From positions 1 to 34,488 of the forward strand of contig JAZURH010000342.1 in assembly GCA_045606125.1 (NCBI GenBank): 34,488 nt of DNA, given 5' to 3'. The position numbers were made by a program, and so were the translations under genes. The notes below the pieces were generated by a model. The model made no database searches. It was not told the DNA's origin and was given only the letters and a program-made list of their open reading frames with translations. Of the stretch, positions 1 through 22,959 are shown one piece after another. The stretch's first letter is position 1. Every line of letters starts with the position of its first letter. The DNA comes from Lentisphaeria bacterium. GTDB taxonomy: Bacteria > Verrucomicrobiota > Lentisphaeria > Oligosphaerales > Oligosphaeraceae.

Positions 1-985
1 TAGGTCCTGTGACCAGGAAAATGCCGTTCGGGCGGCTGATAAGCTTTCTTATGTTAGTCTTGATGTAGTCATTCATGCCAAGACTGTCAAGGCTCAGATT
101 AACAACTCCACGGTCAAGAATACGAAGCACAACGGACTCACCGTATCTGGTCGGCAATGTGGAGACACGAAGGTCGATTGGCTTGTGGTCCACACGAAGT
201 TCAATACGGCCGTCCTGAGGATGACGCCTCTCGGCAATGTTGAGTCCGCTCATGACTTTGATACGGCTTATAACCGGAACGGCAAGATGCTTCGGAGGAG
301 GCGCCATTTCGTAGAGTGCACCGTCAATGCGGTAGCGTATGCGGAATTCATCCGAAAACGGCTCAAAATGAATATCGGACGCCTTGTCTCTGATGGCCTG
401 ATGGATGATAAGATTTACAAAACGGACTATGGGTGCTTCATTTGCCGCCTTTTCAAGTTGGGCGGAGTCATCCATGTCTACAACAGATGACTGTCTTATT
501 TGATCAAGTTCCGTCAGAACATCCGCAATCGTGCTGTTCTTTTCCGGATAAAGTATGTCTATCATTTCATCGACTTCATCAGGATATCCCACAAGAATGC
601 GGCAGTCCTTGTCGAGAATATAGGGAAGTTCATCCGTCAGCTTGCTGTTAAGAGGCTCCGAGGCGGCAAGATAGAGAATATTATCCTCATATTTAACCGG
701 AACTATCTTATAGAACCTTGCCAGATCGTCGCTTACCATTTCCACGACTTCCGGGGGTACTTCCTGGTCCCTGAATGAGAACACCTCAGTACCCAGGTTC
801 TCAGCCATAAGCTTGAGAAGTTCATCCTCGGTAATAATCTTGTAATTGTAAAGCAGCTTTATAAAAGGCCGCTGAAGCCTGTGCACGTCATCGTACACAT
901 CCTCAAGCTGCTCTTCAGTAGCAATGCCTGCATCCAGCAGAAGATGCCATACCATGCTGACATCAGCATCCAAATCAAATGACAT
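1..985 (-). CDS. GspE/PilB-family secretion (T2SS / type IV pilus) ATPase, N-terminal part only; the rest runs off the left edge
   Basis: Absent from the supplied ORF track because no stop lies inside the window. My reverse-strand translation starts at ATG 985..983, with GGAG 7 nt upstream and an in-frame stop at 1048..1046, and stays open to position 1. It reads MSFDLDADVSMVWHLLLDAGIATEEQLEDVY...APIVRFVNLIIHQAIRDKASDIHFEPFSDEFRIRYRIDGALYEM...AERRHPQDGRIELRV...LRVSTLPTRYGESVVLRILD...RPNGIFLVTGP and ends inside the Walker A motif. Confidence 0.85.
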   Translation of the reverse strand, partial: MSFDLDADVSMVWHLLLDAGIATEEQLEDVYDDVHRLQRPFIKLLYNYKIITEDELLKLMAENLGTEVFSFRDQEVPPEVVEMVSDDLARFYKIVPVKYEDNILYLAASEPLNSKLTDELPYILDKDCRILVGYPDEVDEMIDILYPEKNSTIADVLTELDQIRQSSVVDMDDSAQLEKAANEAPIVRFVNLIIHQAIRDKASDIHFEPFSDEFRIRYRIDGALYEMAPPPKHLAVPVISRIKVMSGLNIAERRHPQDGRIELRVDHKPIDLRVSTLPTRYGESVVLRILDRGVVNLSLDSLGMNDYIKTNIRKLISRPNGIFLVTGP

Positions 986-1048
986 ATCTTGACTCCAATG
1001 ATGGATTTTACTCTTTTGCGTCCATAACTTCCACGGCGGCACCAGTTA

Positions 1049-2779
1049 TTATGAATCAACCGTCAGGCGCATGACCTCCCTGATGGATGTAATACCCGCA
1101 GCGGCCTTCAGGATACCATCCTGGCGAAGGGTCTTCATGCCTATTTCACAGGCACGCTTTCTTATTACCGAGGCATCCACCATCTGATAGATCAGATTCT
1201 GAATGCTTTCGTCCAGAACAAATATTTCATAAATACCGATACGCCCTCTGTACCCTTTCTTGCATTCGGGGCATCCGACAGGATCCTTGAAGGTATTTGT
1301 GCTGACTTCTTCCTCAGTAAGCTCAAGATTGGTTATTTCCTCCTGTGTAAGCGTATGCGGAACAGGACATGCCTTGCATAAACGGCGGAGGAGACGCTGA
1401 GCCATGATAGCGCGAACTGACGAGGCCACCAGGAAGGGCTTGATTCCCATATCCATCAGTCGGGTAATGGCAGAAGGCGCGTCATTAGTGTGCAGGGTAC
1501 TGAAGACAAGGTGTCCGGTAAGCGCCGCATTAATGGCGATTTCGCCGGTCTCCTCGTCGCGGATTTCACCGACCATGATGATGTTCGGCGCCTGACGGAG
1601 CATGGCACGCAGAGCATTCACAAATGTCATCTGCACATCCGGGTTGATCTGCACCTGGTTGATTCCGGACAGTTCGTATTCAACAGGGTCTTCCGCAGTA
1701 ATGATCTTGCTGACCGGCTGGTTAAGCGCGTGAAGGAACGAATAGAGAGATGTTGTCTTTCCAGAACCGGTAGGTCCTGTGACCAGAAATATGCCATCCG
1801 GAAAATGTATAATCTGGTCAATGCGCTTCTGATCATCCGGCATGAATCCAAGCTCGGAGATGCCAAGCATGACGCCGCTCTTATCAAGAATACGCATGAC
1901 TATGGACTCGCCCCATGTTGTTGGCAGATCAGAAACACGCAGGTCCAGGTCTCGGCCCATTGCGGTAAACCTGATACGGCCGTCCTGAGGTATACGGTGT
2001 TCTGAAATATCCATTCCGGCCTGGAGCTTCAACCTGGAAAGCACCTGGTTCTGAAGATACTTCGGGGGACTTTCAACTTCGTTCAGCACGCCGTCAATCC
2101 TGTACCGCACGCGGAAACGCTTTTCCATGGGCTCCATGTGAATATCGGAGGCCCTGGAACGGAATGCTTCAAGCAGAAGAAGTGACACAAGCCTTATTAT
2201 GGGGGCGTCATCTTCTTCCTTTGCCTGGCCTGATTCATCCACCGTCACATCTCCAGTCGTATCCATGGTGTTTCCCTGTGTAACATCGACGGTAGTCTCC
2301 GTCATGTCCATAAGGAACTCTTCCATGTTCGAATCCGTCTGGGATCCATAATAATAGTTCAGTGCCTTCTGTATCTGGGATTTGGCGGCCACCACGCCTT
2401 CTACATCCATTTTCAGCAGATACCTTATGGCGTCCAGGGACTCAATGTCTCCGGGATTTTCCATAGCAACCCTGAGTATGCCATTGTTCAGGCTTATTGG
2501 TATCAGGTGATATCTGCGTGCCAGATGCCCGGGGAGCATATCCACGACTTCCGGAAGGATCTTCTTCTCCGCCGTATCAAAATCATAAGTGTCCATTCCA
2601 TATTCTGACGCCAGAAGCTGCACCACATCCCCTTCCGTGCAGATCTTGTCATCATAAAGTGCTTCAAGCGCCGAGCCTGCCTCGTCATTGGCAAACTTCT
2701 CCCGGGCCGTAGCCGCCTGCTCCTCTGTCAGCAGACCCTGCTGCACCATTAAATCAATTACAAAATCGTCGTTGTCCAT
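1049..2779 (-). CDS. GspE/PilB-family secretion ATPase (type II secretion / type IV pilus assembly), full length 576 aa
   Basis: Walker A is LVTGPTGSGKTT. The Asp box and Walker B region is IIMVGEIRD. The His box is GHLVFSTLHTNDA. A tetracysteine Zn motif reads CKAC...CPEC. The conserved core includes ASDIHMEP..RVRYRIDG and PQDGRI. The N-terminus is a T2SSE_N-like domain. Confidence 0.92.
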   Translation of the reverse strand: MDNDDFVIDLMVQQGLLTEEQAATAREKFANDEAGSALEALYDDKICTEGDVVQLLASEYGMDTYDFDTAEKKILPEVVDMLPGHLARRYHLIPISLNNGILRVAMENPGDIESLDAIRYLLKMDVEGVVAAKSQIQKALNYYYGSQTDSNMEEFLMDMTETTVDVTQGNTMDTTGDVTVDESGQAKEEDDAPIIRLVSLLLLEAFRSRASDIHMEPMEKRFRVRYRIDGVLNEVESPPKYLQNQVLSRLKLQAGMDISEHRIPQDGRIRFTAMGRDLDLRVSDLPTTWGESIVMRILDKSGVMLGISELGFMPDDQKRIDQIIHFPDGIFLVTGPTGSGKTTSLYSFLHALNQPVSKIITAEDPVEYELSGINQVQINPDVQMTFVNALRAMLRQAPNIIMVGEIRDEETGEIAINAALTGHLVFSTLHTNDAPSAITRLMDMGIKPFLVASSVRAIMAQRLLRRLCKACPVPHTLTQEEITNLELTEEEVSTNTFKDPVGCPECKKGYRGRIGIYEIFVLDESIQNLIYQMVDASVIRKRACEIGMKTLRQDGILKAAAGITSIREVMRLTVDS

Positions 2780-3003
2780 AGGCTAAAAAATAACTGGTTC
2801 GATTCACAATTCAGCAATGGGCTAAAATACAGCAGCAACTTTATATGTCAATGAACTGTGTGAAAAAAAATCACAGATATTCCATAACTTTTCAAAGCGC
2901 CGGATTCTACAGAAAAATTCAAAAATCCATCTTTGCGATTAAAAAAAGCAATTTCATCAATTCAGCCTTTTCTGCTGCAATTCACAAAATCAGATTGAAG
3001 TTT

Positions 3004-3412
3004 CATGATATTAAAAAGATCTACGGTGAATGTTTCCAGCTTTCCATCCGGACAGAGCAGCTCACTATAAGAGAAGACGCCCCCTGGTTACACGACCGCA
3101 GACTTCCTGGAGGCGGGCAGCTGTTCAGCCATGGCTGCCACTACATAGATCTTCTGCTTTGGATGATGGGCAGGGCACTGCGCGGCACGCATACAGGCAC
3201 AAAATATTGCGGAGCACATCCCGGGCATCGGTGAAAATTGCCGCCAGCATGTTCTTATGGAGCTGCCCCGGGAAATGGTCAAGCCCGCAACTGAGGAAAT
3301 GGAACATTTTTTAGACTGCGTGGACAACGGCACAAAACCCGAAACCTCGCCGGAAGAAAGCCTGGCAGGACTGGAGGTCATTTGGGAACTTTACAGAGCA
3401 GAGGACGAATGA
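3004..3412 (+). pseudogene. Decayed remnant of a Gfo/Idh/MocA-family oxidoreductase (C-terminal domain fragments only, frame-shifted)
   Basis: Frame 1 reads ...IKKIYGECFQLSIRTEQLTIREDAPWLHDRRLPGGGQLFSHGCHYIDLLLWMMG and then stops at 3232..3234. Frame 2 is open from 3167 to 3412 and ends ...EEMEHFLDCVDNGTKPETSPEESLAGLEVIWELYRAEDE*. Both pieces match the typical C-terminal dimerisation domain of the family. No Rossmann N-domain is present and most of the middle is missing. Confidence 0.5.
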
Positions 3413-3511
3413 CGCCTGGCGGATTTCAGCAAAATTGAAATGCCAGCTGACCAGGCATGACTATCAGACGAATTATCTTTTTGCCCTACTGTATTTCCCG
3501 AATGAAAACTC

Positions 3512-4390
3512 TTACGGGACTTCGACCTTTTTCCCGGTGTGCTTCTTTATGAAATCCACATAGTATTTTACTTTTTCAGGCCCGGGGAATCCGGAAGGCA
3601 GAAGATCATCTGCATAGAGCCGGTTCAATTCGGCATATTTGTTTCGCGCCATTGGATTGAAAGGCTCTATGTGAACTCCGGCCACATTTTCGTATTTTTC
3701 AGCAATTTCGGCAATGGCAAGCAGATGTTCCAGCTGATCGTTAACTTCAGGTATCAACGGGCAGCGCAGTATTATCCTTGCTCCGTCTGCATTGAGCCTT
3801 TTCAGATTTTCCAGTATCAGCGAGTTGTCGACCCCAGTCAGTTTACGGTGCAATTCAGCTCCGGTTGCCTTGTAATCATAAAGAAACAGCCCGGTAAAAG
3901 GAATAAGGCGACTCAATGCCTCATAGCTGCCATGACCGCATGTCTCAATGCAGCAATCTATGCCGCGCTGACAGGCAAGGCGGGCAATCTCAAGTGTGAA
4001 TTCCGGCTGAAACAGGGGTTCGCCGCCGGAAATTGTCAAGCCCCCGCCGCTTTCCTCAAAGAACATACGCTCCTTTTCCGCTTCGGCAACTACCTCCCCG
4101 GCGGAAAGCATTCCACCCGCAACAGTAACAGCACCCACAGGACAATTTTCAATGTTCTTCAGCTGCTCTTCTGCCGGGCAGCTCACAGGCAGGCATTTGA
4201 AAATATTTCGGCAGCTTCCGCACTGAAGACATTTCTCCCGGCGGTACATTACCTCAGGATCACCGGATTGAGACTCCGGTGTATGGCACCACAGGCAGCG
4301 CAGTGGACATCCCTTCAAGAACACCACCAGGCGTATTCCCGGGCCATCCTGGGCTGCAAAATGCTTGAAACTCAATACGCGCCCTTTCAT
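3512..4390 (-). CDS. Glycyl-radical enzyme activating protein (radical SAM, PflA family)
   Basis: The radical-SAM CX3CX2C motif reads GCPLRCLWCHTPES. A ferredoxin-like Cys insert reads CLQCGSCRNIFKC...SCPAEE...NCPVGA. I prefer the start at Met20 of the listed ORF (MKGRVLSFKHFAAQDGPGIR), ATG 4390..4388, which forms an ATGA overlap with the stop of the upstream GRE gene. Confidence 0.9.
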   Translation of the reverse strand: MKGRVLSFKHFAAQDGPGIRLVVFLKGCPLRCLWCHTPESQSGDPEVMYRREKCLQCGSCRNIFKCLPVSCPAEEQLKNIENCPVGAVTVAGGMLSAGEVVAEAEKERMFFEESGGGLTISGGEPLFQPEFTLEIARLACQRGIDCCIETCGHGSYEALSRLIPFTGLFLYDYKATGAELHRKLTGVDNSLILENLKRLNADGARIILRCPLIPEVNDQLEHLLAIAEIAEKYENVAGVHIEPFNPMARNKYAELNRLYADDLLPSGFPGPEKVKYYVDFIKKHTGKKVEVP

Positions 4391-6591
4391 AGCACCTCCG
4401 CCTGCCTGATGTAGGCATCCTGTTCTCTGCGCGGCACGGAGTTCCACAGCTGATTCCAGCCGCAGATACGCACCTGCAGATCCCTGTACTGCTCCGGATT
4501 CTCCTGGGCCTTGCGCAAAGTCTCAACATCCATCACATTGAAATGTATTGCATGGCCATAGTTTTTTATGTATGTCATCAGCAGCGCCCGCATGGCATTC
4601 AAACCCGCTTCGCCTGCGATCTCCGAAGGATGCAGCATTATATCCACAGGCAAATCACCCATAAAGCATGATGAATCGAACTTCAGCACCGAAGCTATCA
4701 ATGCAGTCGCCCCGTTAAGCATGCTTCCCTGGGTGGAAGTCATGTTCTTGTTGAGTTCATCCCCTTTCCTGCGTCCGTCGGCGGTAGCCTCCACTGAATC
4801 TGCCCATTCGGCAAAGCGGTTTGAGGAATGAAGCGAGGTAGTGAAGAATCCACCTCTTGAATTCTTTTTTCCATTATACCTTCTGGCCACAGCGGATGTG
4901 AAATGCACTGTCAGGCGGTCAGGAAACTCCAGATTGTTGCCAAATCTCTCCGGATCATTCAGCAGACGCTGCCTGACAAGCTCATCACCCTGAAAATCCC
5001 GGTCAAGCATTGCGGCCAGTTCCTGCAAAGAAAAACATTTCCGTTCAAACACATACCGTTTGATCATGGTCAGACTGTCTGCAGTGGTTGCCGCGCCGCA
5101 TATCCAGAGATTTGTATTATTATACTTTGCGCCTTTGGCATAGCCATCCTGCGCCTGCTGCAAACTGCTTTCAAAAGTACCGGAAACCATGGGAGCCGGA
5201 TTTATCTCATCAAGTTTTTCCTCCATGCGCATCGCCAGTTTCACCCCCTTGTCAAACTGATAAAACAGCTGCCGGAGGAATGCACGGTAAAGACGCGGGA
5301 AAGTGTTCAGTTCCTCTATAGTGCCTGTTTCAAGTCCCATGCGGTGCCCGCTCAGGGGTTCCACACCGTTATGAAGAACCAGTCCCAGTACCTTAGGCAG
5401 ATTCACCGTGACGGGAGCAGTTTCTACAGTGGAGCCTCTGGCGCAGTATTCATAGCAGCCCTTTATGTCCGCCGTCCTGGCTTCACTGAGGGAATATCCG
5501 TATTTCTGCATGGTGCGTATGATACAGGGTTCGCCGACAAAAGCTATGCTGTTGCTTCCGCGGCGTATCATATCCAGGGCATGGTCTATGAAATCCCGTG
5601 GAGTATTTTCCGATACCTTTATCTGCAGTTTCGGGTCATATATCTTCATGTCGTCATATTCATCCAGAATCAGATATGACAGTTCATTAATCGCACTGCT
5701 TGAATCTTCATTTGTACCGCCGAAATAGAATGGATGACCAACTTTATAGTGCATTGCAGTGGCCTGGTACATGAATGACCGGAAGAAATAACGGATATCC
5801 TTTTCCGTATATTCGCCGGAATCAATATCGCGCCTGTAATACGGGTACAGCACTCTGTCCAAATTACCGAATGAACGGGTCTGTATAATATCAACATATT
5901 CCGATATCTGGAAATAGATCCATATTTGCAGCAGTGCCTCATAAGTATTCCGTGGACTTCCATTACGAAGCTGCTTCAGGGCGGTAAGAATCTGCGCCTT
6001 CCTGGGACATTCCGGCAATTTATCCGCCTGTAAGATCAACCTCTCAAGCAGTGACAGTGCCGCATTGTACTCAATTCTGATGCTTTCATAAAATACCCGG
6101 TATTCAGGATGGGATTCAAATTTGCCCGATGCCGCCTTTTCATAGCGGCATGCCCTTTCCAGCAATCCGCTGAACCCCATATCCAGAACAGCATCCCAAT
6201 CCGGAACACAGTGGTCAAAATCCATTCTTATGCTGAGAAGCCTGGTCTGATTGCCCCTGTTTATATCATCAAGCTCTTCCTCCGTGAAAATCCGCTTGTA
6301 AAGCTCTCCGGCCCATTTCGCCATGTGACTCTTAAGCAAAGGCCTTTTAAGGCATGATTCCAGTCCGGGGAAATAATCGTTTACCGATACATCGATTGCA
6401 ACATTGTTCAGGACAAAATCAAATGCCCTTGCCTTTGCCAGCGGCCTGGGCAATTCCTGATCATCCTGATACATCTGCTCGAGCCGGTCCAGCATTTCGG
6501 CAAAGGGCATACCGTCCGCATTGCGATAGAAATCCGGATCGGTGAATTTTCTTTCCATGTATAATCTGTCTTCTTCCCACTGGCTTGTCAT
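4387..6591 (-). CDS. Glycyl radical enzyme, PFL2/dehydratase-lyase type, divergent and short (734 aa), substrate unknown
   Basis: The C-terminal glycyl-radical motif is VRICGWNQLWNSVPRREQDAYIRQ (Gly711, codon 4461..4459). The thiyl loop is DIKGCYEY, with Cys379 (codon 5457..5455) and Glu381. Family-typical blocks include PLAKARAFDFVLNNVAIDVSVNDYFPG, RSFGNLDRVLYPYYRRDIDSGEYTEKDI and GGTNEDSSSAINELSYLIL. SD GGAGGG lies 6 nt upstream of ATG 6591. Confidence 0.9.
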   Translation of the reverse strand: MTSQWEEDRLYMERKFTDPDFYRNADGMPFAEMLDRLEQMYQDDQELPRPLAKARAFDFVLNNVAIDVSVNDYFPGLESCLKRPLLKSHMAKWAGELYKRIFTEEELDDINRGNQTRLLSIRMDFDHCVPDWDAVLDMGFSGLLERACRYEKAASGKFESHPEYRVFYESIRIEYNAALSLLERLILQADKLPECPRKAQILTALKQLRNGSPRNTYEALLQIWIYFQISEYVDIIQTRSFGNLDRVLYPYYRRDIDSGEYTEKDIRYFFRSFMYQATAMHYKVGHPFYFGGTNEDSSSAINELSYLILDEYDDMKIYDPKLQIKVSENTPRDFIDHALDMIRRGSNSIAFVGEPCIIRTMQKYGYSLSEARTADIKGCYEYCARGSTVETAPVTVNLPKVLGLVLHNGVEPLSGHRMGLETGTIEELNTFPRLYRAFLRQLFYQFDKGVKLAMRMEEKLDEINPAPMVSGTFESSLQQAQDGYAKGAKYNNTNLWICGAATTADSLTMIKRYVFERKCFSLQELAAMLDRDFQGDELVRQRLLNDPERFGNNLEFPDRLTVHFTSAVARRYNGKKNSRGGFFTTSLHSSNRFAEWADSVEATADGRRKGDELNKNMTSTQGSMLNGATALIASVLKFDSSCFMGDLPVDIMLHPSEIAGEAGLNAMRALLMTYIKNYGHAIHFNVMDVETLRKAQENPEQYRDLQVRICGWNQLWNSVPRREQDAYIRQAEVL

Positions 6592-6604
6592 AAATGGCCC
6601 TCCG

Positions 6605-6664
6605 TTTTACAAAGACATATTTTACATATAAAAGCCTTGTTCCGCAATGTAAAAACAAGTAAAA
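6605..6664 (-). promoter_or_regulatory. Four TGTAAAA/TTTTACA heptamers (two direct, two inverted) just upstream of the GRE ribosome-binding site; candidate operator or 5'-leader hairpin
   Basis: On the plus strand, TTTTACA sits at 6605-6611 and 6620-6626, TGTAAAA at 6648-6654 and AGTAAAA at 6658-6664. The proximal copy abuts SD GGAGGG (6603..6598). The region is AT-rich, so chance occurrence is possible. Confidence 0.3.
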
Positions 6665-6727
6665 TAAATATACTTTTCTGTATTTTTGCAATATATACTG
6701 ATGTTTTTTTAAGCAGGAAGATGTGTA

Positions 6728-7534
6728 TTACTGCATATACATTTCTTTCCTGAATGTGGCGGGCGGGTATTTCATGGTACGCTTAAAGAACCGTGAAAAA
6801 TAGTATTCATTGGAAAAATGCAGTTCCCCGGCAATTTCCTTTATGGAAAGTCTTCCTTCCTCCAGGAGTTCAACCGCTCTATTAATAATTATATTTTCAT
6901 TGAATTTCCGTGGTGTGATTCCTGTTTCAGCAACGAACTTTCTTGCAAAAGTCTGCTCACCGGAGTTCATAAAGCGTGCCATTTCCGCCACTTTGACATG
7001 GGGATTCATTTGCTGCTGCAGCCATTGAGTCAACCCATTATAGGCCGGCAGATGAGAACTGCGACGGCGGCACAGTTCAAACTCCGGCATCTGCACAAGT
7101 CTGTGCAATATCGTACGGACAAGCAGATGTGCCCCGTTCAGGAACTGCATGGGTTCGATTGCCCCGGTATTCATGGATTCAGCCAGAGGCAGCAGTTCCG
7201 GTGCAATACCATGTTGCGTAAATGCAAAGCAGGAAAGTATTTCCATGCCATGAAGCATTGAAAAGTTAAAATGGATAGACAGACGCTGATGCTTCAGATG
7301 GCAATGCCTTATTTCCGCAAAAGGCGGCACAAGAAGCCACATGCCGCGCTGCAGAAATATCCTGCCGCCACCGTCCTCAAGAAAACTGCCCTCATTGCAA
7401 TCTATGCAGAACAACAGCCGCGCGTGGGGATATTTGGTATGGAACATTCCGTTGCTTTCACCTGAATAAAAGTTTTTGAACTTCAATTTCAAGGAATTGT
7501 CCAGTGCGATAAGTTCCTGCTGCTGCAATTTCAT
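6728..7534 (-). CDS. AraC-family transcriptional regulator (cupin-like sensor domain plus double HTH)
   Basis: The C-terminus reads FARKFVAETGITPRKFNENIIINRAVELLEEGRLSIKEIAGELHFSNEYYFSRFFKRTMKYPPATFRKE, a typical AraC/XylS HTH pair. The N-terminal ~150 aa look like an AraC-type ligand-binding barrel. The gene lies 136 bp upstream of the GRE on the same strand. Confidence 0.85.
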   Translation of the reverse strand: MKLQQQELIALDNSLKLKFKNFYSGESNGMFHTKYPHARLLFCIDCNEGSFLEDGGGRIFLQRGMWLLVPPFAEIRHCHLKHQRLSIHFNFSMLHGMEILSCFAFTQHGIAPELLPLAESMNTGAIEPMQFLNGAHLLVRTILHRLVQMPEFELCRRRSSHLPAYNGLTQWLQQQMNPHVKVAEMARFMNSGEQTFARKFVAETGITPRKFNENIIINRAVELLEEGRLSIKEIAGELHFSNEYYFSRFFKRTMKYPPATFRKEMYMQ

Positions 7535-11375: not shown

Positions 11376-12290
11376 ATGAATTCCATAATAGTTTCCTATG
11401 CGGTCATGGGCCTGGCATGGCTTCTCTGGTCCATGGATCCGATACTGATACGTGTAATAGGGGATGATGTATCCCGTCCTGTTATGGCAGGTCTTTCCCT
11501 GGGAATGGCCGGTCTGATAATGATAGTCCCCGCTATAAAGGGATTTACCCGGATCAGCCGCCGGCGCGATCTGTGGTTCGGCTTCTTCTACTACATAATT
11601 TTTGCCACTGTGATCGCGGATCTTCTCTATGTGATTGCAATTCGTAACCTGAATCCCGGCCTTGTCAGCCTGATTTTGCGTTCCCAGGTCATGATGGCAA
11701 TTCTGTCGGCATGGATATTTTTCAATGAAAAGCCTAACAAATCGGTCATGTTAGGCATGCTTATCGTAATTCTTGGGTATTGCGGGACAGCATATTTCTC
11801 CAATTCAGGAACTGTGCCGACGGAAGACGGCGTAACCAGAAACACGGTTCTGGGATGGCTTTGTGCCATTGCTGCCGCCATGCTGTGGACATCAGGAACC
11901 ATCATGGGCAAGAAACTTATGGAAAATATCAAGTCAAGCCATCTCTGCGGCATGAGAATGCTCACTGCGGGAATAATCACCATTGCGGCCCATATCTGCT
12001 GCGGGGGCGGAGGGGAATACCTGACACTGAGCGGAAAACAGTGGGGCATCATGGCATTGAAATCCCTGTTATGCTCAGCTCTGGCATACGGTCTTTACAT
12101 GTACGGACTGCATCTCTCCCCGGTCACGGCAGCCGCTGCAATAGAACAGGCGGCACCGCTGTTTACCTTGTTTGTGGCGACTTTCTTCCTCCATGAAACA
12201 ATAGCCATGTACCAGTGGTGCACAGTGACCGTCGTATTCATAGGAGCGGCCATAATACTTGTAAACCAGTACAAGCGGGCAAAAATCTGA
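11376..12290 (+). CDS. EamA/DMT-family transporter (10-TM drug/metabolite exporter type)
   Basis: The 304-aa ORF has two repeated 5-TM halves. Typical EamA blocks include IAIRNLNPGLVSLILRSQVMMAILSAWIFFNEKP and AAIEQAAPLFTLFVATFFLHETI. SD AGGAGA lies upstream. Confidence 0.85.
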   Translation: MNSIIVSYAVMGLAWLLWSMDPILIRVIGDDVSRPVMAGLSLGMAGLIMIVPAIKGFTRISRRRDLWFGFFYYIIFATVIADLLYVIAIRNLNPGLVSLILRSQVMMAILSAWIFFNEKPNKSVMLGMLIVILGYCGTAYFSNSGTVPTEDGVTRNTVLGWLCAIAAAMLWTSGTIMGKKLMENIKSSHLCGMRMLTAGIITIAAHICCGGGGEYLTLSGKQWGIMALKSLLCSALAYGLYMYGLHLSPVTAAAAIEQAAPLFTLFVATFFLHETIAMYQWCTVTVVFIGAAIILVNQYKRAKI

Positions 12291-12306: not shown

Positions 12307-14421
12307 ATGGCTCCCCTGCTGCCAATATGGTTCATAGCACTCTGGGCTGCCGCCGCTCTGGCCATAATGCTTGCCGGCTATCGCGGGCTGCGTCTGAACA
12401 GAAGGCGCCTGCTACTGCTTGCCTTGCTTGACATGTCGGTACTCACATGTCTGCTTCTTGCACTGCTGCAGCCAGTTTACAGAAAAAGCAGCCTGCAGAA
12501 AGGAGGATGCAAGATTGTATTGCTGGGAGACTTCTCCGGAAGCATGGCTGTTTGCGACATGCCCTCAGGAATCAGCAGACGCCGGACACTGGCGGATATC
12601 ACGCCATCTCTGCCCGATATAAGAACGGAATACATGGCGTATGCCGGCTCCATGAAACGCGTCGCGGATTTCAGCGGTGACGGCAGCCTGCCGGGGACAA
12701 GTCCGGCAGGAACCCATCTTCTTAAAATCCTTGAGGAATCCGGCAGATCTGTTCCCCTCGCCGCCGTTGTTCTTTTCAGCGACGGGGCAGTCAATGAGGG
12801 GCCATCCCTTACAGAGGCAGCCAAGGAATACAAGCGCCAGGGCATTCCTGTAAGCTGTGTCGGACTGGGTGGCGCATTGGATGTGCCGGATTATTCCGTC
12901 AGATGGCTCTCTCCCATAATGTCCGTAATGCGGGATGAAAACTGCATCCTTTCGGCTATTGTTGATGGCACTGCCCCCGCCGAACTGGAATTGACCTTTT
13001 CCGGAATCGAAGGAGTGATAGAAAAGCGCAAAGTCAGTTTTTCCAGTGCGCCGATACGGATTTCATTTGAAGTCTCTCCCCGAACTGAAGGTGTGCATTC
13101 ATACATGATTGCAGTAGACGGTGCTCCGAAAGAAACCAGAAAGGACAACAATGCCGCCTTTGCCGCGGTGGAGGCAGCTGCCCCGCCAGTGTTCAAGGTC
13201 CTGTCCCTTCTTGCCGGGCTTGACTGGGAGCAGAGATTCATCAATCAATTCGCTGCCGGAAACAACCAGTTTTCTACTGCGTCAATCGTAATGCTTTCAG
13301 AGAAACGCTTTGCCGCAAACGGTTTTCCTGACAATGCAGTTGTCCCGGAAAACAAATTTCCTGACAATTCTGCATTCTATGATAATTTTGACATTGTGAT
13401 CCTGGATACCAGAGCAATTCCAGCACTCGGGGAAAAAGGCATTCTTGCATTAAGGGCATTTGTAGAGAACAAAGGCGGGGGACTTATTGTCCGTGGCCCT
13501 GTCAGTGCAATGCCGTCGGTAATGGCCGATATGCTTCCATCAACAGGAACCGGGCTTGTACAGTCCAAGACTGCTTTGGAATTGAAGTTTCGCACGGATT
13601 TTATTTTCGGCAGAGACAAAACAGGGCTGCTTAACGGAGGACGGGGGGCTTTTCCTGCAGGCGGAGAGGATATTTATTTCCCTCTTGAAGGTCTCAGGAA
13701 ATCCGCCAGGGTAATTGCTGAGCTTGACATGCGGCATGCCGGAGTGCCAATTGCGGCGGGAATGCCCTTTGGTGCGGGACGTGTTGTTCAGACCGGCTTG
13801 GAATCCACATGGAGATGGCACATTTCCGGCAACGGACTTCATGGTGCATGGTGGAGCAATTTGTTTCTATGGCTTGCCGAGGCCGCCAAACCCAGAATAC
13901 GGGAAATGAACGGAAGGCTGACCAGGGCGGGAGAGGAATACCTTCTTGATCTGGCAGTACTGGATGACGATTTTCTACCTGCGCCCGAAGCATCTGTTAC
14001 AGCTCTGATCCGCGGGCCTGACAGTGCCGTTACGGAACTGGTCCTGGAACCGTCCCCTGACGGTGAGGGGCGCTATTCGGCCATCACCTTTCCAGAAAAA
14101 CACGGTGAATACAAGGTGTCCTACAGGATAAAGCTTCCTGAAAGAACTCTGCATAAAGAATCTTTTTTCATGGCATCGTCAGGTGGAAAGGAAATGGAAA
14201 ACACATCTTTTGACGGAACATTGCTCCGCGATGTGGCAAGAATCAGCGGAGGGCGTTATTTTAATGCAGATGAGTACGATATGTCGAATATTCCTTTGTC
14301 GAATAAAGTTCCGAGAGTATATTCTGCTTCATATCCTGCATCATCACGGCTTTTCGCGGTTTTGTTTGTAGTTTCGGCTTTGGTGCTTTGTGCAGTAAGA
14401 AGGCGTTTAGGCTTGAAATAA
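12307..14421 (+). CDS. Membrane-anchored vWA-domain protein (BatA-like) with a GATase1-like middle domain and a C-terminal TM anchor
   Basis: Two N-terminal TM helices are followed by the MIDAS motif VLLGDFSGSM (DxSxS) and then VVLFSDGAVNEG. A ThuA/GATase1-like block reads FDIVILDTRAIPALGEKGILALRAFVENKGGGLIV, and WRWHISG...WWSNLFLWLAE follows. The C-terminal TM is LFAVLFVVSALVLCAV. Confidence 0.75.
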   Translation: MAPLLPIWFIALWAAAALAIMLAGYRGLRLNRRRLLLLALLDMSVLTCLLLALLQPVYRKSSLQKGGCKIVLLGDFSGSMAVCDMPSGISRRRTLADITPSLPDIRTEYMAYAGSMKRVADFSGDGSLPGTSPAGTHLLKILEESGRSVPLAAVVLFSDGAVNEGPSLTEAAKEYKRQGIPVSCVGLGGALDVPDYSVRWLSPIMSVMRDENCILSAIVDGTAPAELELTFSGIEGVIEKRKVSFSSAPIRISFEVSPRTEGVHSYMIAVDGAPKETRKDNNAAFAAVEAAAPPVFKVLSLLAGLDWEQRFINQFAAGNNQFSTASIVMLSEKRFAANGFPDNAVVPENKFPDNSAFYDNFDIVILDTRAIPALGEKGILALRAFVENKGGGLIVRGPVSAMPSVMADMLPSTGTGLVQSKTALELKFRTDFIFGRDKTGLLNGGRGAFPAGGEDIYFPLEGLRKSARVIAELDMRHAGVPIAAGMPFGAGRVVQTGLESTWRWHISGNGLHGAWWSNLFLWLAEAAKPRIREMNGRLTRAGEEYLLDLAVLDDDFLPAPEASVTALIRGPDSAVTELVLEPSPDGEGRYSAITFPEKHGEYKVSYRIKLPERTLHKESFFMASSGGKEMENTSFDGTLLRDVARISGGRYFNADEYDMSNIPLSNKVPRVYSASYPASSRLFAVLFVVSALVLCAVRRRLGLK

Positions 14422-14436
14422 CAGGACGGTTTTCCA

Positions 14437-17400
14437 ATGAAACTTCATCATACATTATGTGCGGCAATTCTGGTTTGCCTGTCTGCATTTGCTTCCGATG
14501 GATGGACTGAACTGATGCAATTCAGAAAGCCTGAAGGCAACCTTGTCTTCAAAATGGCGGGACGCCCGGGTGTCCCCCCGGTGAAACTGCGGATTTCCGG
14601 TGCGGAACGCAAGGCAGTGATAAATATGGGGGACGGGTCATGGAATATTTCATGTACTGATGACAAGGGAACAGGAATATCCCTTCCGGCACCGGTAGAT
14701 CACGGACGGGCGGAAAATGCTTCTGAATATGAAGTCCTGGTAAAATTCCGGGAGGAATGGTGGGCATATTATATAAATGGAATGTTGTGCGGTGAAATGC
14801 AGGCTCCCATGGATCTGGAAGGATGCAGGCTGGAATGGCCGAATGACTCCCGTGTGCAGCTGAGTGCACCCATGGATTTCCAGATAACGGCAAGGCCTTC
14901 GTTCCAATCGGACTTTATGATCGAACCGGGAGCAAAAGATGAATTGCAGCCATGGAAGAAAGAGTACGGCAACTGGCATATACATACGGCCCTGCTTGAA
15001 TCAAAAGACAGGCCCGAGACAGACCAGGGCACAATGAAACGCACGCCGCCATCGGCTGACAAGTCTCCGAATTTCTACTCTCTCAAGGGTGGAGGGAAAG
15101 AAGAGGATTGCCTGCTTACAACAGGAAGCGATCTTTTTGACAACTATACGCTTACGGCATCATTGCAGCCGGAAGGCGGCGAAGCCGGCATTGCATTTCT
15201 GTGCCGCGGAAGCGGAAAGGACACTACATTCTATGCCCTGACTCTGTATCGCGAAAACGACGGTGAAATCAGGCTATGGAAATATGAAAATGGAAAGCGC
15301 ACCAATCTTGTGCGCGTGGCGGTCCCTCTTTATGATAAGCAATGGTATCTGCCCGGCGTCAGCCTTCGCAACGGTGAGATAACAGCTACTCTGGACAATG
15401 CCCTGCTGTTCCGTTACAGAGGACGCATTCCGGCAAACGGCAGAATAGGACTTTTTGCCAAAACACCTGAAGAGACCAGATTTGACGATGTAAAGCTTTC
15501 ATCAAACGGTGATTTTGCGTTGGAAAACGAAAACGATCTGGCGGCAAATACGGTGTTTGCAACGCCCGGCATGGTCCGCCTTGCTGAAAAGCCGGGAGAA
15601 GTGTCTCTGCCGCAAGCCGGTTTTTCATTTAATGTAAAGGCCGGGGAAACAGATGAGATGCTGGCTCTTGGCCGCGCGCATTGTGCCTCGTCTGTGTTTT
15701 CAGCCCGGATTGACAGTGAAAAAGCGGGACTTGTCGCCGGATGGCGTGGAAATGGTCAGCCATATTATGTTTTTCTCAGGACCCGCAAAGGCAGGAATGC
15801 AGATTATGAACTTATACGCTTTGCACCCGGCGGAAAAAGCGTTCTGGACAGGTTTTCCGCGCCATGGCGGGATGGAGACGAGCTTCTTGTGGAAATATCC
15901 GCCTCGGGAATGCTGAAATGCTGCAGCAGCGATGCTATGATTTTCCGCAGGGACGATGTCAAGCCGGGTGCTGCCGGACTTTTCGTTCCTGCAGGTTCCT
16001 CAGCTGAATTCAGTGGTATACTTATGTCCAGAGAGCGTAAAAGGGCCTATGAAAGACTGCAGGAGAACAAGGTCTTTGAAAATGACCCGTTCATGCGTCA
16101 CTGGGCTGCCGCCGAAGGTCAGTGGATAGGCGGAGGCGGTGACATAATGTACCACAAGGGCGACTTCTTCGGCGATTTCAATATGACTCTTCCCTATTTG
16201 GCGGGTGGTGAAATACATTTCGGTCTTGCGGACGGAGCAAAAGAAGGCGCGCTGAAACTGGTTCTGGCTGAAAAGGAAATAAAGATAAGCGGTCCGGACG
16301 AATATACGGAAACCTTTGCGATAGCACCTCAAAAGGCTGACGGAACGATAAATGTGAAGCTGGAAGGCTACTGGCTTGATGTATCCTGTTCCGGTAAACC
16401 CATCATGTCCCGCAGACTGGAGATGCCCCTGAGGGAATACGGAACCAGGGTACTGACCAGGAAATACACCAGCAAAATAATGGAGAAGAGCAGCGTAACC
16501 AGAATGAATGTCATAGATGACTTCTTCAGCGAATCTCCCCATGACTGGCTGGTCAACGGAGGCGACTGGCAGATAATCAACCGTTTTCAGTGTACAGCCA
16601 GCTGGTCCCACATGATAAGCCATTCCCTCGAATCCATGGGCGCATTCTGGCGCAAGCAGCGTTTTGAGGGAGACATGACCCTGGAATTCTATGCCGGGAC
16701 AAGGCATGGCTATTACCACAAAGCAGGCAACATGAACTGCACAATAATGGCAAAAGACAACACTCCGTCCTCCGGCTATACTGTCACATGCTCAGAATGG
16801 GACCATAATAATTCCCAAAACTGGACTGTGCTGTACAGAAACGGCATAAGAATGACCAGATCCGATGCCTACATGGTGCCCCGTCGGCGCATGGGGACTT
16901 ACAGGCGCATACACAATCCTCTTATCGCCAGAGGAAGAGATATTCACGGTGCCTGGTACTATATGAAATTGCGCAAGATAGGCAATAAAATTGAATACTG
17001 GTTTGACGATGAACTGGTAATGACTGCCAATGATGATGATGTGCTCAAAGAAGGTACTTTGGGAATATGGACATTTGACCACAGCATGACGCTGGCCCAA
17101 ATTAAGATCACATACGAAAAAATGGTCAATAAGCAGCATGATGTGAAATTGCTGCCTGCCGAGATACCTGCACCCGCTAAACCTGCCGCCCCTGAACAAT
17201 GGGATGCAACTGCAGGAGGATTCCCGCTTAATGCCATGGAATCAAGATACTGGAAATACAGCGATGCCGTTGCTCAGGGAAAGGCGGAGCAATTTGCATT
17301 GAACACGGACGGCATCATGGTAGTGAACAATCTTGGTGCAGGCGACATGAAAATATCAGCGGAACTTCCCGCTCTGAAACTGGCGGATGTGGCGGGTTTC

Positions 17401-20172
17401 AGGTTCCGGGTGAAAAGGACACGGGGAGCCGGATTCAATTTCTTCTACAATATACTTTCCGAAGACGGAAAGAAGATAATCGGCCGCTATTATCACAGGA
17501 TTTCAGGAACTGATTTTTCAAGAGGTCCCTGGAAGAAGACCGGTGAGACGGAAATACCTGTATTTGAAGGTGCTCTAACAGGCACCGATGGATGGTCAGA
17601 TGTCACAGTATGGCTTCCCCGCTGGATACGAACAAGCGAGGCCGGGGATGCCAAACATCTTGTCAAGGTCGGCGGATTCGGATTGGAGCAGTTCGATTTC
17701 ATGGCTTCCGGAATTGCTGGTAATGCGCCAGGTGATGCCTACGCCGTATGCGATTTCAGACCCATATTCTATAAACGGCCTGAAGTAGTCGTCGGCAAGG
17801 ATGTACGGGCAAATGCCAGACAGGGCCTGACGGGAAGCCGTCCTCCCATGACAATGGATGCCAAGGTTCTGGCCGGACAGCTGGAAAAATGCGCCCAGGG
17901 GACCGACAACCCCTGCGCCTATGTAGATTTAAACAAAGGCGGCTCAGCATTGACTGCAATAGTTGAATGGCTGCCTTCCCACGATGAAGCGGATGTGAAG
18001 GTCGAATGGGCCGACGGCAGATTTGATACAGTAGCCGTGAAAAGCGGAAGACCATATTGTGACTACCGCCTGGAGAATATGAAACTTAAGTTCAACGGCG
18101 CTGATTTAAAACTGATCCATGACAAGCGGGGCGACGCCATTGCAACAGCGGTGATTCCGCGCAATGACGGTGCCGTCGCAAAGTTCGCCGGAGGGAAACT
18201 GGATTTTGAACTTAACCTGGGAAAAAACAATGTCAGGCATTTCCAGCTTGAAACCGGGGATGCAAAACGGGGAAACGCGCCCCCTGCACTTATGAAAATT
18301 GATGGATTCACGCCATTGTGGCTTGGCTTTGAAGAGGAAACTATTCCATCTGCCCTGGTTCGCCAGGGTGAACCGCGCATGATGTTCGATCATGATCCGG
18401 AGACCGGAAGGCATATGATCATAAACAACTATCCCGGCAACGGCGGGTTAAGGACCCAGTATAAGCAAAGTTATTCCATTGCAGAATATCCGGTGATGTT
18501 CCTGCGGTACAATGCCGATGATATGTGCCATGTATCGCTTATATATGGTCACAATTATATCCGCCTGGGGGCCCAGAGCAGCAGAGACAGCCGCAATGTG
18601 CGTTTTGCAAAACCTCTGGAGCAGGACGGTAAATGGCATTCATGGCTGGGCTTTGCAGCTGACGGATTCGTCAACCGAAACTACAATACCAGAAAATATT
18701 CCGTATCCGAATTTACGATAGGGACCGGAAGAGGAGCAGACCAGACAGGAGTCTACAGCAGATTGAAACTGGATGACATCATGGCTGGACCGGCAGTCAA
18801 TTCAGCAGAAAATCTGGCATTTACTCCCACATATTTTGATTTTGACGGCGTGGAGCGGATTGAATATGCATTTTTCAACGGGGAATTGTTCTATGACGGC
18901 AGGGAATTGAACTGGAGCAAAGCTGCACCAGGCGCCAAGATCCAGCCGGTTCTGCCAAAGGATGTCAAGGATGGACTGGCCAGCATACTTGTACGTGCGG
19001 TTGACAAGAGGGGCAATATTTCACCCGTGACACAACTTCCTTTCCTGCTGGACAGGAAGCCTCCCAAAGTCGAAATGGCAGTTGTGACTACTGACCGGCC
19101 GGAACTGAACGGCAAAATGCTGCGGATCAAGGTCGACAAGCATGGAGGAGCTCCGCTGAATCTTGCAAAAGCAGTGTACAAGACATCGGAAAAAAAACTG
19201 GGGATTTCCAGCTGGTCCAATGAATATGACAATACCGAAAACCATGACATCGCATTCCTTAACTACCCCTTCATACTCAGGCGCCAGCTTGATAAGACTC
19301 CGGATGGAGGGACTGTGGATTTCCAGATGTGCGGCATAGAAGACGGTGCTGGAAACAAATGTCCGGATCATTCATATAAGATCAAGGTAAATTTTGCGGG
19401 TGACAAGCGCGGTCCCAGCTGGCACAGCCTTGTGCCCGATGACGGCTATGTCATAGCGCATAACTGGGATGGAACGCAAGTCGCAAACAGTAAGTTTTTC
19501 CACAGCGGAGGCGGACAGGAACTGAGAATCGTAAATGAGGCGGCATCATCCCCGTTCCTGAGGCATTACGGCTATTCAAGAAATGCCAGCTTGATCTGCA
19601 ATATAACGTGGGAACCTGCCAAGACCCCCTGGATGGGCTTCAGGCTGTCAACCACAACACACAGAAAGAATACCTGGACAAGGCTGGTTCTTACCGCCGA
19701 GGACAACAGGCATTTCATTATTTCGCTCACGGCGCCCAGCAAGGAGGCTAATGAACTCAATACAAAACAGACATTCCAGTGGGAAAACAACAAATGGATC
19801 AACTTCTCCTTCAATGTGCTCCAGATGCTCAGGGACAAGAAAATCCCCGATGCGGACAAGATCAAGTTCAAATCCATTACATTCCTGAGAACTGGCATGA
19901 AGCACAGGGATAATCTGCAGCTGGATGACTTCTTTATCATGGGACCACCGGTAAAGAAGCGGGACTGCAGGATAATTGCATTTGACGAAAGCGGCGTGGC
20001 ATCCATAGACATATATGACGGCGATGCTATTGTAAAAACATTGAAAATTGGATCGGACTATTACAATCTGGATGATCTTCGCACAGACAAATTGAGATGG
20101 CTGCGCCTGATAGCAAAGGACAAGGTCGGCAATGTTTCCATTCCATGCTGGCTGCCCATCGCACCAAAATGA
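14437..20172 (+). CDS. Giant secreted protein (1911 aa) with repeated concanavalin-A-like/LamG (DUF1080-like) jelly-roll modules, a Pro-rich linker and C-terminal Ig-like modules
   Basis: The signal peptide is MKLHHTLCAAILVCLSAFASDGW. At least five segments have a LamG/DUF1080-type pattern, for example YTLTASLQPEGGEAGIAFLCRG...FYALTLYRENDGEIRLWKY...GRIGLFAKTPEETRFDDVKL and FEGDMTLEFYAG...GTLGIWTFDHSMTLAQIKITYEKM. The linker is LLPAEIPAPAKPAAPEQWD. Three D-x-x-G-N motifs typical of bacterial Ig-like domains occur late in the protein: AVDKRGNIS, IEDGAGNKC and AKDKVGNVS. The CDS call is strong; the domain calls are pattern-based. Confidence 0.8.
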   Translation: MKLHHTLCAAILVCLSAFASDGWTELMQFRKPEGNLVFKMAGRPGVPPVKLRISGAERKAVINMGDGSWNISCTDDKGTGISLPAPVDHGRAENASEYEVLVKFREEWWAYYINGMLCGEMQAPMDLEGCRLEWPNDSRVQLSAPMDFQITARPSFQSDFMIEPGAKDELQPWKKEYGNWHIHTALLESKDRPETDQGTMKRTPPSADKSPNFYSLKGGGKEEDCLLTTGSDLFDNYTLTASLQPEGGEAGIAFLCRGSGKDTTFYALTLYRENDGEIRLWKYENGKRTNLVRVAVPLYDKQWYLPGVSLRNGEITATLDNALLFRYRGRIPANGRIGLFAKTPEETRFDDVKLSSNGDFALENENDLAANTVFATPGMVRLAEKPGEVSLPQAGFSFNVKAGETDEMLALGRAHCASSVFSARIDSEKAGLVAGWRGNGQPYYVFLRTRKGRNADYELIRFAPGGKSVLDRFSAPWRDGDELLVEISASGMLKCCSSDAMIFRRDDVKPGAAGLFVPAGSSAEFSGILMSRERKRAYERLQENKVFENDPFMRHWAAAEGQWIGGGGDIMYHKGDFFGDFNMTLPYLAGGEIHFGLADGAKEGALKLVLAEKEIKISGPDEYTETFAIAPQKADGTINVKLEGYWLDVSCSGKPIMSRRLEMPLREYGTRVLTRKYTSKIMEKSSVTRMNVIDDFFSESPHDWLVNGGDWQIINRFQCTASWSHMISHSLESMGAFWRKQRFEGDMTLEFYAGTRHGYYHKAGNMNCTIMAKDNTPSSGYTVTCSEWDHNNSQNWTVLYRNGIRMTRSDAYMVPRRRMGTYRRIHNPLIARGRDIHGAWYYMKLRKIGNKIEYWFDDELVMTANDDDVLKEGTLGIWTFDHSMTLAQIKITYEKMVNKQHDVKLLPAEIPAPAKPAAPEQWDATAGGFPLNAMESRYWKYSDAVAQGKAEQFALNTDGIMVVNNLGAGDMKISAELPALKLADVAGFRFRVKRTRGAGFNFFYNILSEDGKKIIGRYYHRISGTDFSRGPWKKTGETEIPVFEGALTGTDGWSDVTVWLPRWIRTSEAGDAKHLVKVGGFGLEQFDFMASGIAGNAPGDAYAVCDFRPIFYKRPEVVVGKDVRANARQGLTGSRPPMTMDAKVLAGQLEKCAQGTDNPCAYVDLNKGGSALTAIVEWLPSHDEADVKVEWADGRFDTVAVKSGRPYCDYRLENMKLKFNGADLKLIHDKRGDAIATAVIPRNDGAVAKFAGGKLDFELNLGKNNVRHFQLETGDAKRGNAPPALMKIDGFTPLWLGFEEETIPSALVRQGEPRMMFDHDPETGRHMIINNYPGNGGLRTQYKQSYSIAEYPVMFLRYNADDMCHVSLIYGHNYIRLGAQSSRDSRNVRFAKPLEQDGKWHSWLGFAADGFVNRNYNTRKYSVSEFTIGTGRGADQTGVYSRLKLDDIMAGPAVNSAENLAFTPTYFDFDGVERIEYAFFNGELFYDGRELNWSKAAPGAKIQPVLPKDVKDGLASILVRAVDKRGNISPVTQLPFLLDRKPPKVEMAVVTTDRPELNGKMLRIKVDKHGGAPLNLAKAVYKTSEKKLGISSWSNEYDNTENHDIAFLNYPFILRRQLDKTPDGGTVDFQMCGIEDGAGNKCPDHSYKIKVNFAGDKRGPSWHSLVPDDGYVIAHNWDGTQVANSKFFHSGGGQELRIVNEAASSPFLRHYGYSRNASLICNITWEPAKTPWMGFRLSTTTHRKNTWTRLVLTAEDNRHFIISLTAPSKEANELNTKQTFQWENNKWINFSFNVLQMLRDKKIPDADKIKFKSITFLRTGMKHRDNLQLDDFFIMGPPVKKRDCRIIAFDESGVASIDIYDGDAIVKTLKIGSDYYNLDDLRTDKLRWLRLIAKDKVGNVSIPCWLPIAPK

Positions 20173-20194
20173 CTGTTTGAATAAAGGAGAATAC

Positions 20195-20932: not shown

Positions 20933-20944
20933 TAAATTGCGTTT

Positions 20945-22954: not shown

Positions 22955-22959
22955 AAGAA

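Follow-up and report, generated by a model that had tools for sequence, protein, structure and literature searches.

Which substrate is served by a glycyl radical enzyme (GRE) that is encoded, together with an AraC-family regulator and a dedicated activase, in a genome region rich in glycan-degrading genes? The question is raised by a 34,488-nucleotide stretch of a Lentisphaeria bacterium (assembly GCA_045606125.1, contig JAZURH010000342.1, positions 1 to 34,488; hereafter the window), in which a first-pass annotation of the bare sequence had singled out an "orphan" AraC-GRE-activase module whose short, divergent GRE might act on a sugar-derived small molecule. The three open reading frames (ORFs) are consecutive on the minus strand, at the positions that annotation had given (Table 1). 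Judged by its motifs, the window GRE is a full member of a large clade without assigned function, and relatives within this clade point to carbohydrate substrates. What is new here is that the window gene represents a large GRE clade tied to glycan catabolism; it does not represent a new kind of system.

A large motif-defined clade

The clade is defined by a GC[YF]E Cys loop, an R-[VLI]-C-G-W-N Gly loop, the residues Asp124, His127, Arg239, and Asn616, and a length of ~680–775 aa, all of which the window protein has. A HMMER search over 1.84 billion representatives at 50% identity returned 1294 matches at E <= 1e-30; both loop signatures are present in 106 full-length proteins, and in additional fragments, among the best 150 of these 1294 representatives. 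Canonical enzymes with GCVE and RVAGY loops (790–812 aa) appear in this ranking only at ~265 bits. A word-indexed search recovered 277 relatives of 700–760 aa in Lentisphaerae, Victivallales, and Planctomycetes, the closest of them 72% identical, and a scan in which each GTDB species was represented by a single genome found at least 579 matching stretches. Hosts of the clade include Lentisphaerota (Victivallales), Planctomycetota, Verrucomicrobiota, and gut Clostridia, the last represented by Oscillospiraceae, Acutalibacteraceae, Christensenellaceae, and Candidatus Ornithomonoglobus; Oligosphaera ethanolica DSM 24202 (locus L040) is a cultured carrier. A search of the literature on GREs in these hosts and contexts found no description of the clade, and a 2026 review, according to which whole GRE clades are still unvalidated, names no enzyme of the GCYE / R-x-C-G-W-N type (PMC13450708).

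Conservation was measured in sets of 40, 94, and 106 homologs. Essentially invariant in the largest set are Asp124, His127, Arg239, Asp245, Cys379, Tyr380, Glu381, Asp605-Gly-Arg607, Asn616, Arg708, Gly711, Trp712, and Asn713. Cys379, Gly711, and His127 are likewise invariant in the set of 94, with Glu381 retained in 91/94 of these proteins and in 106/106 of the larger set. Positions 237, 286, 289, 382, 390, 395, 588, 590, and 612 vary across the clade; the subfamily of the window enzyme is cytoplasmic and carries GCYEY, Gln237, and His588. Such constancy in the catalytic core, next to changes in the pocket, is the pattern to expect when the members of a clade have diverged to use related substrates, and the variation at pocket positions 237, 286, 382, 390, 395, 588, and 590 indicates that substrates surely differ among subfamilies.

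Gene integrity and catalytic residues of the window enzyme

The catalytic motifs first read from the translation are borne out: the Cys loop is GCYEY (Cys379-Tyr380-Glu381), the Gly loop is RICGW (Gly711), and the spacing from Cys to Gly is 332 aa. Further hallmarks of a GRE are present as well, namely a PFL-like barrel with a C-terminal glycine-radical domain, a Gly loop with an opposing Cys loop, and a cognate activase. An AlphaFold2 model built from 40 homologs (predicted local distance difference test score [pLDDT] 92.6; predicted template modeling score [pTM] 0.92) has the canonical GRE barrel. Foldseek aligned it with template modeling (TM) scores of 0.83–0.88 to more than 40 GRE chains, among them every solved PFL2-type GRE, at 20–23% identity and with no preferred neighbor. 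The GRxDQ motif, otherwise conserved in GREs, reads GNLDR in the window GRE, which has a new arginine, Arg239, four residues upstream. The protein is very probably a working radical enzyme.

The start of the GRE gene is sound because a ribosome-binding site (GGAGGG, 6603–6598), an in-frame TAA (6609–6607) six codons 5' of the ATG at 6591, and conserved first residues in homologs of the same length all support it; among homologs of 717–740 aa, conservation begins at about residue 5. The short N-terminus seen in the first pass is thus genuine and family-wide and does not reflect a misplaced start codon, but its description needs amending, in that the first helix is not missing. In alignment with glycerol dehydratase, residues 36–72 of the window enzyme match residues 35–71, and ~36 residues are absent before residue 80 (glycerol dehydratase residue 116); this gap after residue 72 places most of the shortening in an internal deletion within the N-terminal helical region. 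Shorter loops elsewhere account for ~20 further residues in the same alignment. No signal peptide is present in the window GRE.

The activase ORF spans 4447–3512. Its ATG at 4390 overlaps the GRE stop codon as ATGA and follows a GGAGG 5 nt upstream, so that this ATG is most likely the start, with predicted translational coupling to the GRE. The protein passes the activase model TIGR02494 (254 bits; cut-off 174) and carries the CxxxCxxC motif as CPLRCLWC. Its ferredoxin-like insert retains 4 rather than 8 conserved Cys (C73, C76, C79, and C102 in ORF numbering). The activases of loci L009 and L010 share this reduced insert; across the family, 38/58 activases have the full set and 20/58 are without the second Cys set. 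In the activases of the window, L009, and L010, a single auxiliary cluster is probably bound, where the full set of Cys would hold two.

That the module is a decaying or non-catalytic relic is very improbable. Only half of the auxiliary-cluster Cys are left in the activase, and the adjacent Gfo/Idh/MocA oxidoreductase gene is a frameshifted fragment, as might be expected of decay; against this, the GRE ORF is full-length with complete catalytic residues, a ribosome-binding site, coupling to the activase, and a confident structural model, and the reduced insert recurs in related activases. The neighboring gene had been called dead in the first pass, and six-frame reading agrees: a switch of frame leaves a C-terminal remnant in which the Rossmann-fold half is absent. 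The remnant is probably a non-working neighbor outside the module. Its adjacency to the GRE may date from an earlier linkage, since intact Gfo/Idh/MocA genes stand near clade GREs elsewhere; the loci in which they were observed are L003, L091, and L092.

Fusions to carbohydrate-active enzymes and export signals

Seven clade representatives are long proteins in which the C-terminal 700 aa form a GRE with intact GCYE and RxCGWN loops. The N-terminal partner is a domain of a carbohydrate-active enzyme (CAZyme) in 6/7 of them: a complete beta-mannosidase-like enzyme of glycoside hydrolase (GH) family GH2 (P0151), an acetyl-xylan esterase of carbohydrate esterase (CE) family CE7 (P0153 and P0170), a SASA esterase (P0157), a GH78 rhamnosidase (P0240), and a 3-keto-disaccharide-hydrolase domain (P0154). 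The partner in P0180 belongs to no recognized family. Two further apparent fusions, of 1009 aa (L049) and 869 aa (L060), were rejected as over-extended starts.

The fusion genes sit in co-directional glycoside-hydrolase operons (loci L088–L092). In one, the SASA-GRE gene is followed by GH2 and then GH127; in another, GH127 precedes, at some remove, GH78-GRE, three GH92 genes, and GH2. A third encodes a hybrid of AraC with a periplasmic-binding domain, an activase, GH51, Gfo/Idh/MocA, a beta-helix protein, CE7-GRE, an AGE-type epimerase, and DUF4434, and a fourth encodes Gfo/Idh/MocA, a GH42-like protein, an esterase, and 3-keto-disaccharide-hydrolase-GRE. The fusions establish the theme of the clade and not the substrate of the window protein.

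Hydrophobic N-termini resembling signal peptides, some of them lipobox-like, are found in 7/7 fusions and in none of the other ~250 family proteins examined. Textbook twin-arginine (Tat) signals are additionally present in two unfused GREs, P0150 (L093:8001-10313), which begins MKADLTRRRFLEGLAAASLG, and P0169 (L094:86-2413), which begins MNAETTRRHFLELIAAAAAAG; the ATG of P0150 has a GGAGG upstream at the right distance. The adjoining activase (L093:10330-11916; 528 aa) is fused to a metallophosphoesterase domain and is without a signal, and the activase of the CE7-GRE operon (L091:553-1380) begins, as called, with MIGRREFVGTSFAWVAVEALG and has a Tat-like look. The Tat-bearing GREs and six of the fused GREs are one another's closest relatives (41–58% identity) and thus group into a single subclade that appears to be exported; the GH78 fusion arose independently. 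The Tat signals would imply export of a folded, possibly pre-activated GRE. To our knowledge, a GRE outside the cytoplasm is without precedent.

Neighbors of the enzyme in related loci

ORFs of 88 related loci were clustered, 84 of which have a called GRE; many of these loci are cut by contig ends. A homologous AraC gene adjoins the GRE in 54/84 loci, usually in divergent orientation, and is co-directional in the window. An activase was found in at least 55/84, with more of them hidden behind antisense shadow ORFs. Cluster c5 was discarded as a presumed shadow of this kind of the activase, judged by its position and by the shadow ORF at 3539–4414 of the window, and cluster c13 was likewise discarded as a presumed shadow of the GRE. 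The triad is a self-contained and portable unit because the window's other genes have no homologs in the related loci. The label "orphan" given to the module holds in that there are no fixed pathway partners; it fails in that the AraC-GRE-activase triad recurs widely, across phyla, as a conserved unit in a very large family.

Tandem paralogous triads are found in several loci, with five GREs in L015, four in L078, and three in L067, and suggest diversification over a series of related substrates. Counting L053, L016, and L035 as well, arrays of 2–5 paralogous GREs occupy 10–17 kb and are mostly accompanied by AraC and/or activase genes; the genomes that carry them are mostly Clostridia assembled from metagenomes.

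Several neighbors recur. SGNH/GDSL esterases account for 8 neighbors in related loci, and a SASA carbohydrate esterase is present in 4 loci, its start overlapping the GRE stop in three. In Clostridia, an EamA transporter gene lies within the operon, between GRE and activase; a gene resembling SMP-30/gluconolactonase is directly 3' of the GRE, ahead of the activase, in L054 and L073; and GH78 lies within 1 kb of the GRE in three independent loci. Genes for GH39, CE15, short-chain dehydrogenases of the gluconate-5-dehydrogenase/KduD type, and proteins like 2-keto-3-deoxygluconate (KDG) kinase also recur. Taken together, the predicted functions of the neighbor genes provide weak but recurrent links to carbohydrates, for which the fusions are the stronger evidence.

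Proposed mechanism

A Cys-x-Glu (CXE) motif with substrate-bound Glu, together with the general-acid His of glycerol dehydratase, is a hallmark of C–O-cleaving GREs (PMC13450708), and the window enzyme has the CXE motif of this group of eliminases and isomerases as C379-Y380-E381. From the CXE-type dehydratases and the YbiW/PflD sugar isomerases we infer a similar chemistry for the window enzyme; the nature of its substrate, discussed below, is likewise an inference. The AraC protein would sense a small molecule and switch on the GRE-activase operon as an inducible catabolic switch. With S-adenosylmethionine, the activase would act on the folded GRE in the cytoplasm and remove a hydrogen from Gly711, and the radical would pass to Cys379 as a thiyl. 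On the substrate, the thiyl would attack a carbinol carbon, taking its hydrogen while Glu381 holds the geminal hydroxyl; deprotonation would give a ketyl radical, from which the vicinal C–O group (water, a ring or ether oxygen, or an O-linked substituent) would be expelled. His127, paired with the clade-specific Asp124, is the likely general acid. The product radical would regain its hydrogen from Cys379, yielding a deoxy-keto sugar or deoxy-lactone that could enter ordinary sugar-acid metabolism. Were the anomeric C–H attacked, the product would be a 2-deoxy-aldonolactone, which might suit the esterase/lactonase, short-chain dehydrogenase, and KDG-kinase genes that recur nearby.

Nature of the substrate

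Some carbohydrate, whether a small molecule or a glycan chain, is on balance the probable substrate, since the genes in relatives' operons and the GH2, GH78, CE7, and SASA fusions all speak for one. The sugar-derived substrate guessed in the first pass gains independent support in this way from related sequences, through the in-operon esterases, lactonase-like gene, and EamA and the CAZyme fusions. More specifically, there is perhaps an even chance that the window enzyme acts by radical C–O cleavage, as a dehydration or as the opening of a ring or ether, on a small carbohydrate-derived molecule that glycan breakdown sets free, be it a monosaccharide, a disaccharide, or a derivative.

Several observations weigh against a small sugar-derived substrate. 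Besides AraC and the activase, no metabolic partner or transporter is conserved among the clustered loci, and none of the window's other genes has a homolog in any of them. The apparent enrichment of carbohydrate genes among neighbors, judged within the related loci themselves, is modest. The fused and exported relatives are only 27–34% identical to the window enzyme. Finally, the best-scoring characterized relative, HypD, acts on an amino acid and not on a sugar.

One alternative is that the substrate is a non-carbohydrate small molecule, such as a hydroxylated amino acid, an osmolyte, or a sulfonate (as with HypD, CutC, or IslA), and that the glycan surroundings are incidental to life as a glycan-degrading bacterium. 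HypD leads by both sequence and structure, the genes around the module in the window, which serve housekeeping or glycan functions and lie on the opposite strand, have no relation to it, and the clade-invariant Arg239 could bind a carboxylate or sulfonate. However, HypD Asp278 is replaced by Gln237 and the HypD model scores 305 bits against a cut-off of 1100; genes for handling amines, sulfite, or proline do not recur near clade GREs; and CAZyme domains in 6/7 fusion partners are hard to ascribe to chance. These data make a non-carbohydrate substrate somewhat unlikely.

The fusions raise a further alternative, in which the enzyme cleaves an oligosaccharide or glycan chain directly, at a glycosidic, ether, or non-hydrolysable C–O bond, by radical beta-elimination. 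Clade GRE domains are fused to whole glycoside hydrolases or carbohydrate esterases inside GH operons, and one subclade bears export signals, as expected of enzymes that meet polymers outside the cytoplasm; the esterase partners could deprotect the hydroxyl on which ketyl formation depends. The window enzyme itself, however, is cytoplasmic and unfused and is 31–34% identical to the exported subclade, and the GRE structures solved to date have buried active sites that accommodate small molecules (PMC13450708). Direct attack on a chain by the window enzyme is decidedly unlikely, and a small carbohydrate-derived molecule is retained as the preferred substrate.

Module layout, regulator, and surroundings in the window

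Table 1. Positions of the AraC-GRE-activase module and of other features in the window.
Feature	Position	Strand	Remarks
AraC-family transcriptional regulator	6728..7534	(-)	268 aa; PF12833 (HTH_18) E 1e-16, residues 185-263
AraC-GRE intergenic region	6592..6727	(-)	136 bp, with GRE ribosome-binding site; presumed regulated promoter
Glycyl radical enzyme (GRE)	4387..6591	(-)	734 aa; PF02901 E 6e-88; PF01228 E 2e-18
GRE residue codons	Cys379 5457-5455; Glu381 5451-5449; Gly711 4461-4459; His127 6213-6211; Arg239 5877-5875	(-)	
Radical-SAM GRE activase	3512..4390	(-)	292 aa from ATG 4390; Radical_SAM/Fer4_12; TIGR02494
Gfo/Idh/MocA oxidoreductase remnant	2845..3420	(+)	PF22725 at residues 61-110 of 129-aa ORF
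Type II secretion/type IV pilus-type ATPase genes	2-2779	(-)	two in tandem
EamA gene	11376-12290		
Block of large co-directional genes	12307-25137	(+)	
YhgA-like transposase	25240-26202	(-)	
GH78 rhamnosidase	26551-28896		
Flavin reductase-rubredoxin fusion	32710-33516	(-)	

The C-terminal half of the AraC protein is the HTH_18 domain. Its N-terminal ~160 aa have no Pfam or PDB match (PDB matches cover the HTH half only), and this half is presumed to be the ligand-sensing domain. No Rfam family matched anywhere in the window, scans for promoter and terminator consensus sequences did no better than on shuffles, and a search of two intergenic regions for repeats, including operator-like repeats, found none.

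The first pass had also described the region as rich in glycan-degrading genes, and heparinase II/III, GH78, and CBM9 are present in the window. Its statement that there is no transporter needs qualifying, as an EamA gene lies ~4 kb from the module, though in a divergent gene block. This EamA shows no similarity at E < 1e-8 to the one found within operons of Clostridia and was rejected as its ortholog, and a DapA-like gene considered as a sugar-acid aldolase partner was rejected as a true DapA (352 bits; cut-off 206). The flanking genes, which are unrelated to the module, encode ATPases of the type II secretion system (T2SS) type, ManC, NUDIX, DapA, EamA, a 1911-aa protein, heparinase II/III, GH78, and others.

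The block of large genes at 12307–25137 comprises a 704-aa unnamed protein, the 1911-aa protein, a metallophosphoesterase, a heparinase II/III-type lyase, and a 725-aa protein, and probably constitutes an operon for glycan degradation in which several proteins lack annotation; the 1911-aa protein carries a domain like 3-keto-disaccharide-hydrolase/DUF6250. Between this block and the GH78 rhamnosidase sits a PD-(D/E)XK / YhgA-like transposase, in a stretch of low GC content (0.41–0.43). The tandem T2SS/T4P-type ATPase genes are GspE/PilB-like, and the first is cut by the window edge. At the other end of the window, a flavin reductase is fused to rubredoxin-type domains; such fusions are typical of oxygen or nitric oxide defense in strict anaerobes, and the gene is consistent with a host that uses oxygen-sensitive radical enzymes.

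Significance

GREs give anaerobes chemistry that otherwise needs oxygen or vitamin B12, and newly assigned GRE clades have each opened a pathway: choline to trimethylamine, hydroxyproline, sulfonates, and anhydro-sugars. The clade described here is common in gut, rumen, and digester bacteria specialized in complex glycans, and the repeated fusion of its GREs to glycoside hydrolases and carbohydrate esterases suggests that a radical step is missing from current accounts of how anaerobes break down glycans. On the broadest reading, the clade would be an anaerobic counterpart of oxidative glycan cleavage, acting at glycosidic, ether, or esterase-unmasked positions, and the exported subclade (the Tat-GREs, the CAZyme-GRE fusions, and possibly a Tat-targeted activase) would contain the first GREs to work outside the cytoplasm. 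In its fullest form, this proposal is of a new class of carbohydrate-active radical enzymes that break C–O bonds of sugars or glycans anaerobically without oxygen or water, with one periplasmic subclade and the window module as a cytoplasmic AraC-controlled member; so broad a claim is at present unlikely to hold in full. The compact sensor-enzyme-activase triad, which requires no further partners, would nevertheless be a convenient unit for expression and screening, and the AraC protein could act as an inducer biosensor.

Comparison with characterized glycyl radical enzymes

Placement among characterized GREs used bit scores, curated cut-offs, motifs, and Foldseek, and residue equivalences were taken from HMMER alignments against PDB sequences. 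The best NCBIfam model for the window GRE is that of HypD (NF043068; 304.7 bits, cut-off 1100), and the broad PFL2 subfamily model TIGR01774 scores 273.8 bits, below its cut-off of 678.2. Scores are also far under the cut-offs for CutC (TIGR04394; 202 vs. 1050 bits), for the sulfonate lyases IslA, HpsG, and HpfG (NF048009, 237 vs. 1000; NF048011, 202 vs. 1000 bits), and for YbiW/PflD (NF007437; 204.8 vs. 1109 bits); the HPAD and IAD models likewise score below those of HypD and TIGR01774. The pyruvate formate-lyase model TIGR01255 gives 41.8 bits against 994, and the Cys-Cys pair of that enzyme is absent, with a single Cys in GCYE. PDB sequences rank in the order HypD, glycerol dehydratase, HplG, propanediol dehydratase, PflD, and CutC, with scores all alike.

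An ortholog of a characterized GRE, whether HypD, glycerol or propanediol dehydratase, choline or isethionate lyase, PflD/YbiW, or pyruvate formate-lyase, is therefore improbable in the extreme. The fold and the CXE motif are held in common with these enzymes, but the scores are three- to twenty-fold under every curated equivalog cut-off, identity is 20–23%, and the positions that contact substrate in HypD and glycerol dehydratase are replaced. Clustering with any characterized GRE, the outcome that would have undone the first-pass proposal, is ruled out on these grounds. The genomic context agrees: microcompartment shell, aldehyde dehydrogenase, and alcohol dehydrogenase genes are lacking from the window, as had been reported for it, and so are phosphotransferase system (PTS), kinase, and aldolase genes.

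HypD (PDB 6VXC/6VXE) is the top match by sequence and structure (phmmer E 3e-72; profile E 1e-114; TM 0.88). It shares with the window enzyme the barrel fold, the CXE motif, a dedicated activase, and a histidine (HypD His160, window His127). It differs in that identity in the structural alignment is 22%, the window enzyme is ~55 aa shorter, the loops read GCYE and RICGW rather than GCVE and RVAGY, and proline-pathway genes are absent near the window GRE. HypD Asp278, which reportedly binds the substrate amine, corresponds to Gln237.

The B12-independent glycerol and 1,2-propanediol dehydratases (PDB 1R8W, 5I2A, and 9RCO) also have the CXE motif; the general-acid His164 of glycerol dehydratase corresponds to His127, the Arg of the nPRGG segment to Arg579, and the Cys-Gly spacing of 330 is close to the 332 of the window enzyme. 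However, Asp447, the acid-base partner of His164, falls in an alignment gap, His281/Ser282 are replaced by Gln237/Thr238, and Tyr640 is replaced by His588. The aldehyde-handling and microcompartment context of these dehydratases is not that of the window.

The sole characterized sugar-acting GREs are YbiW/PflD (PDB 8ID7 and 8ID0), which open the ring of 1,5-anhydrohexitol-6-phosphate. Identity to the window enzyme is 21%, and the Ser-Ser-Leu of PflD contrasts with Gln-x-Arg in the window clade. The CXE motif is shared, and the radical C–O cleavage beside a deprotonated hydroxyl that YbiW/PflD carry out is the chemistry proposed here for the window enzyme.

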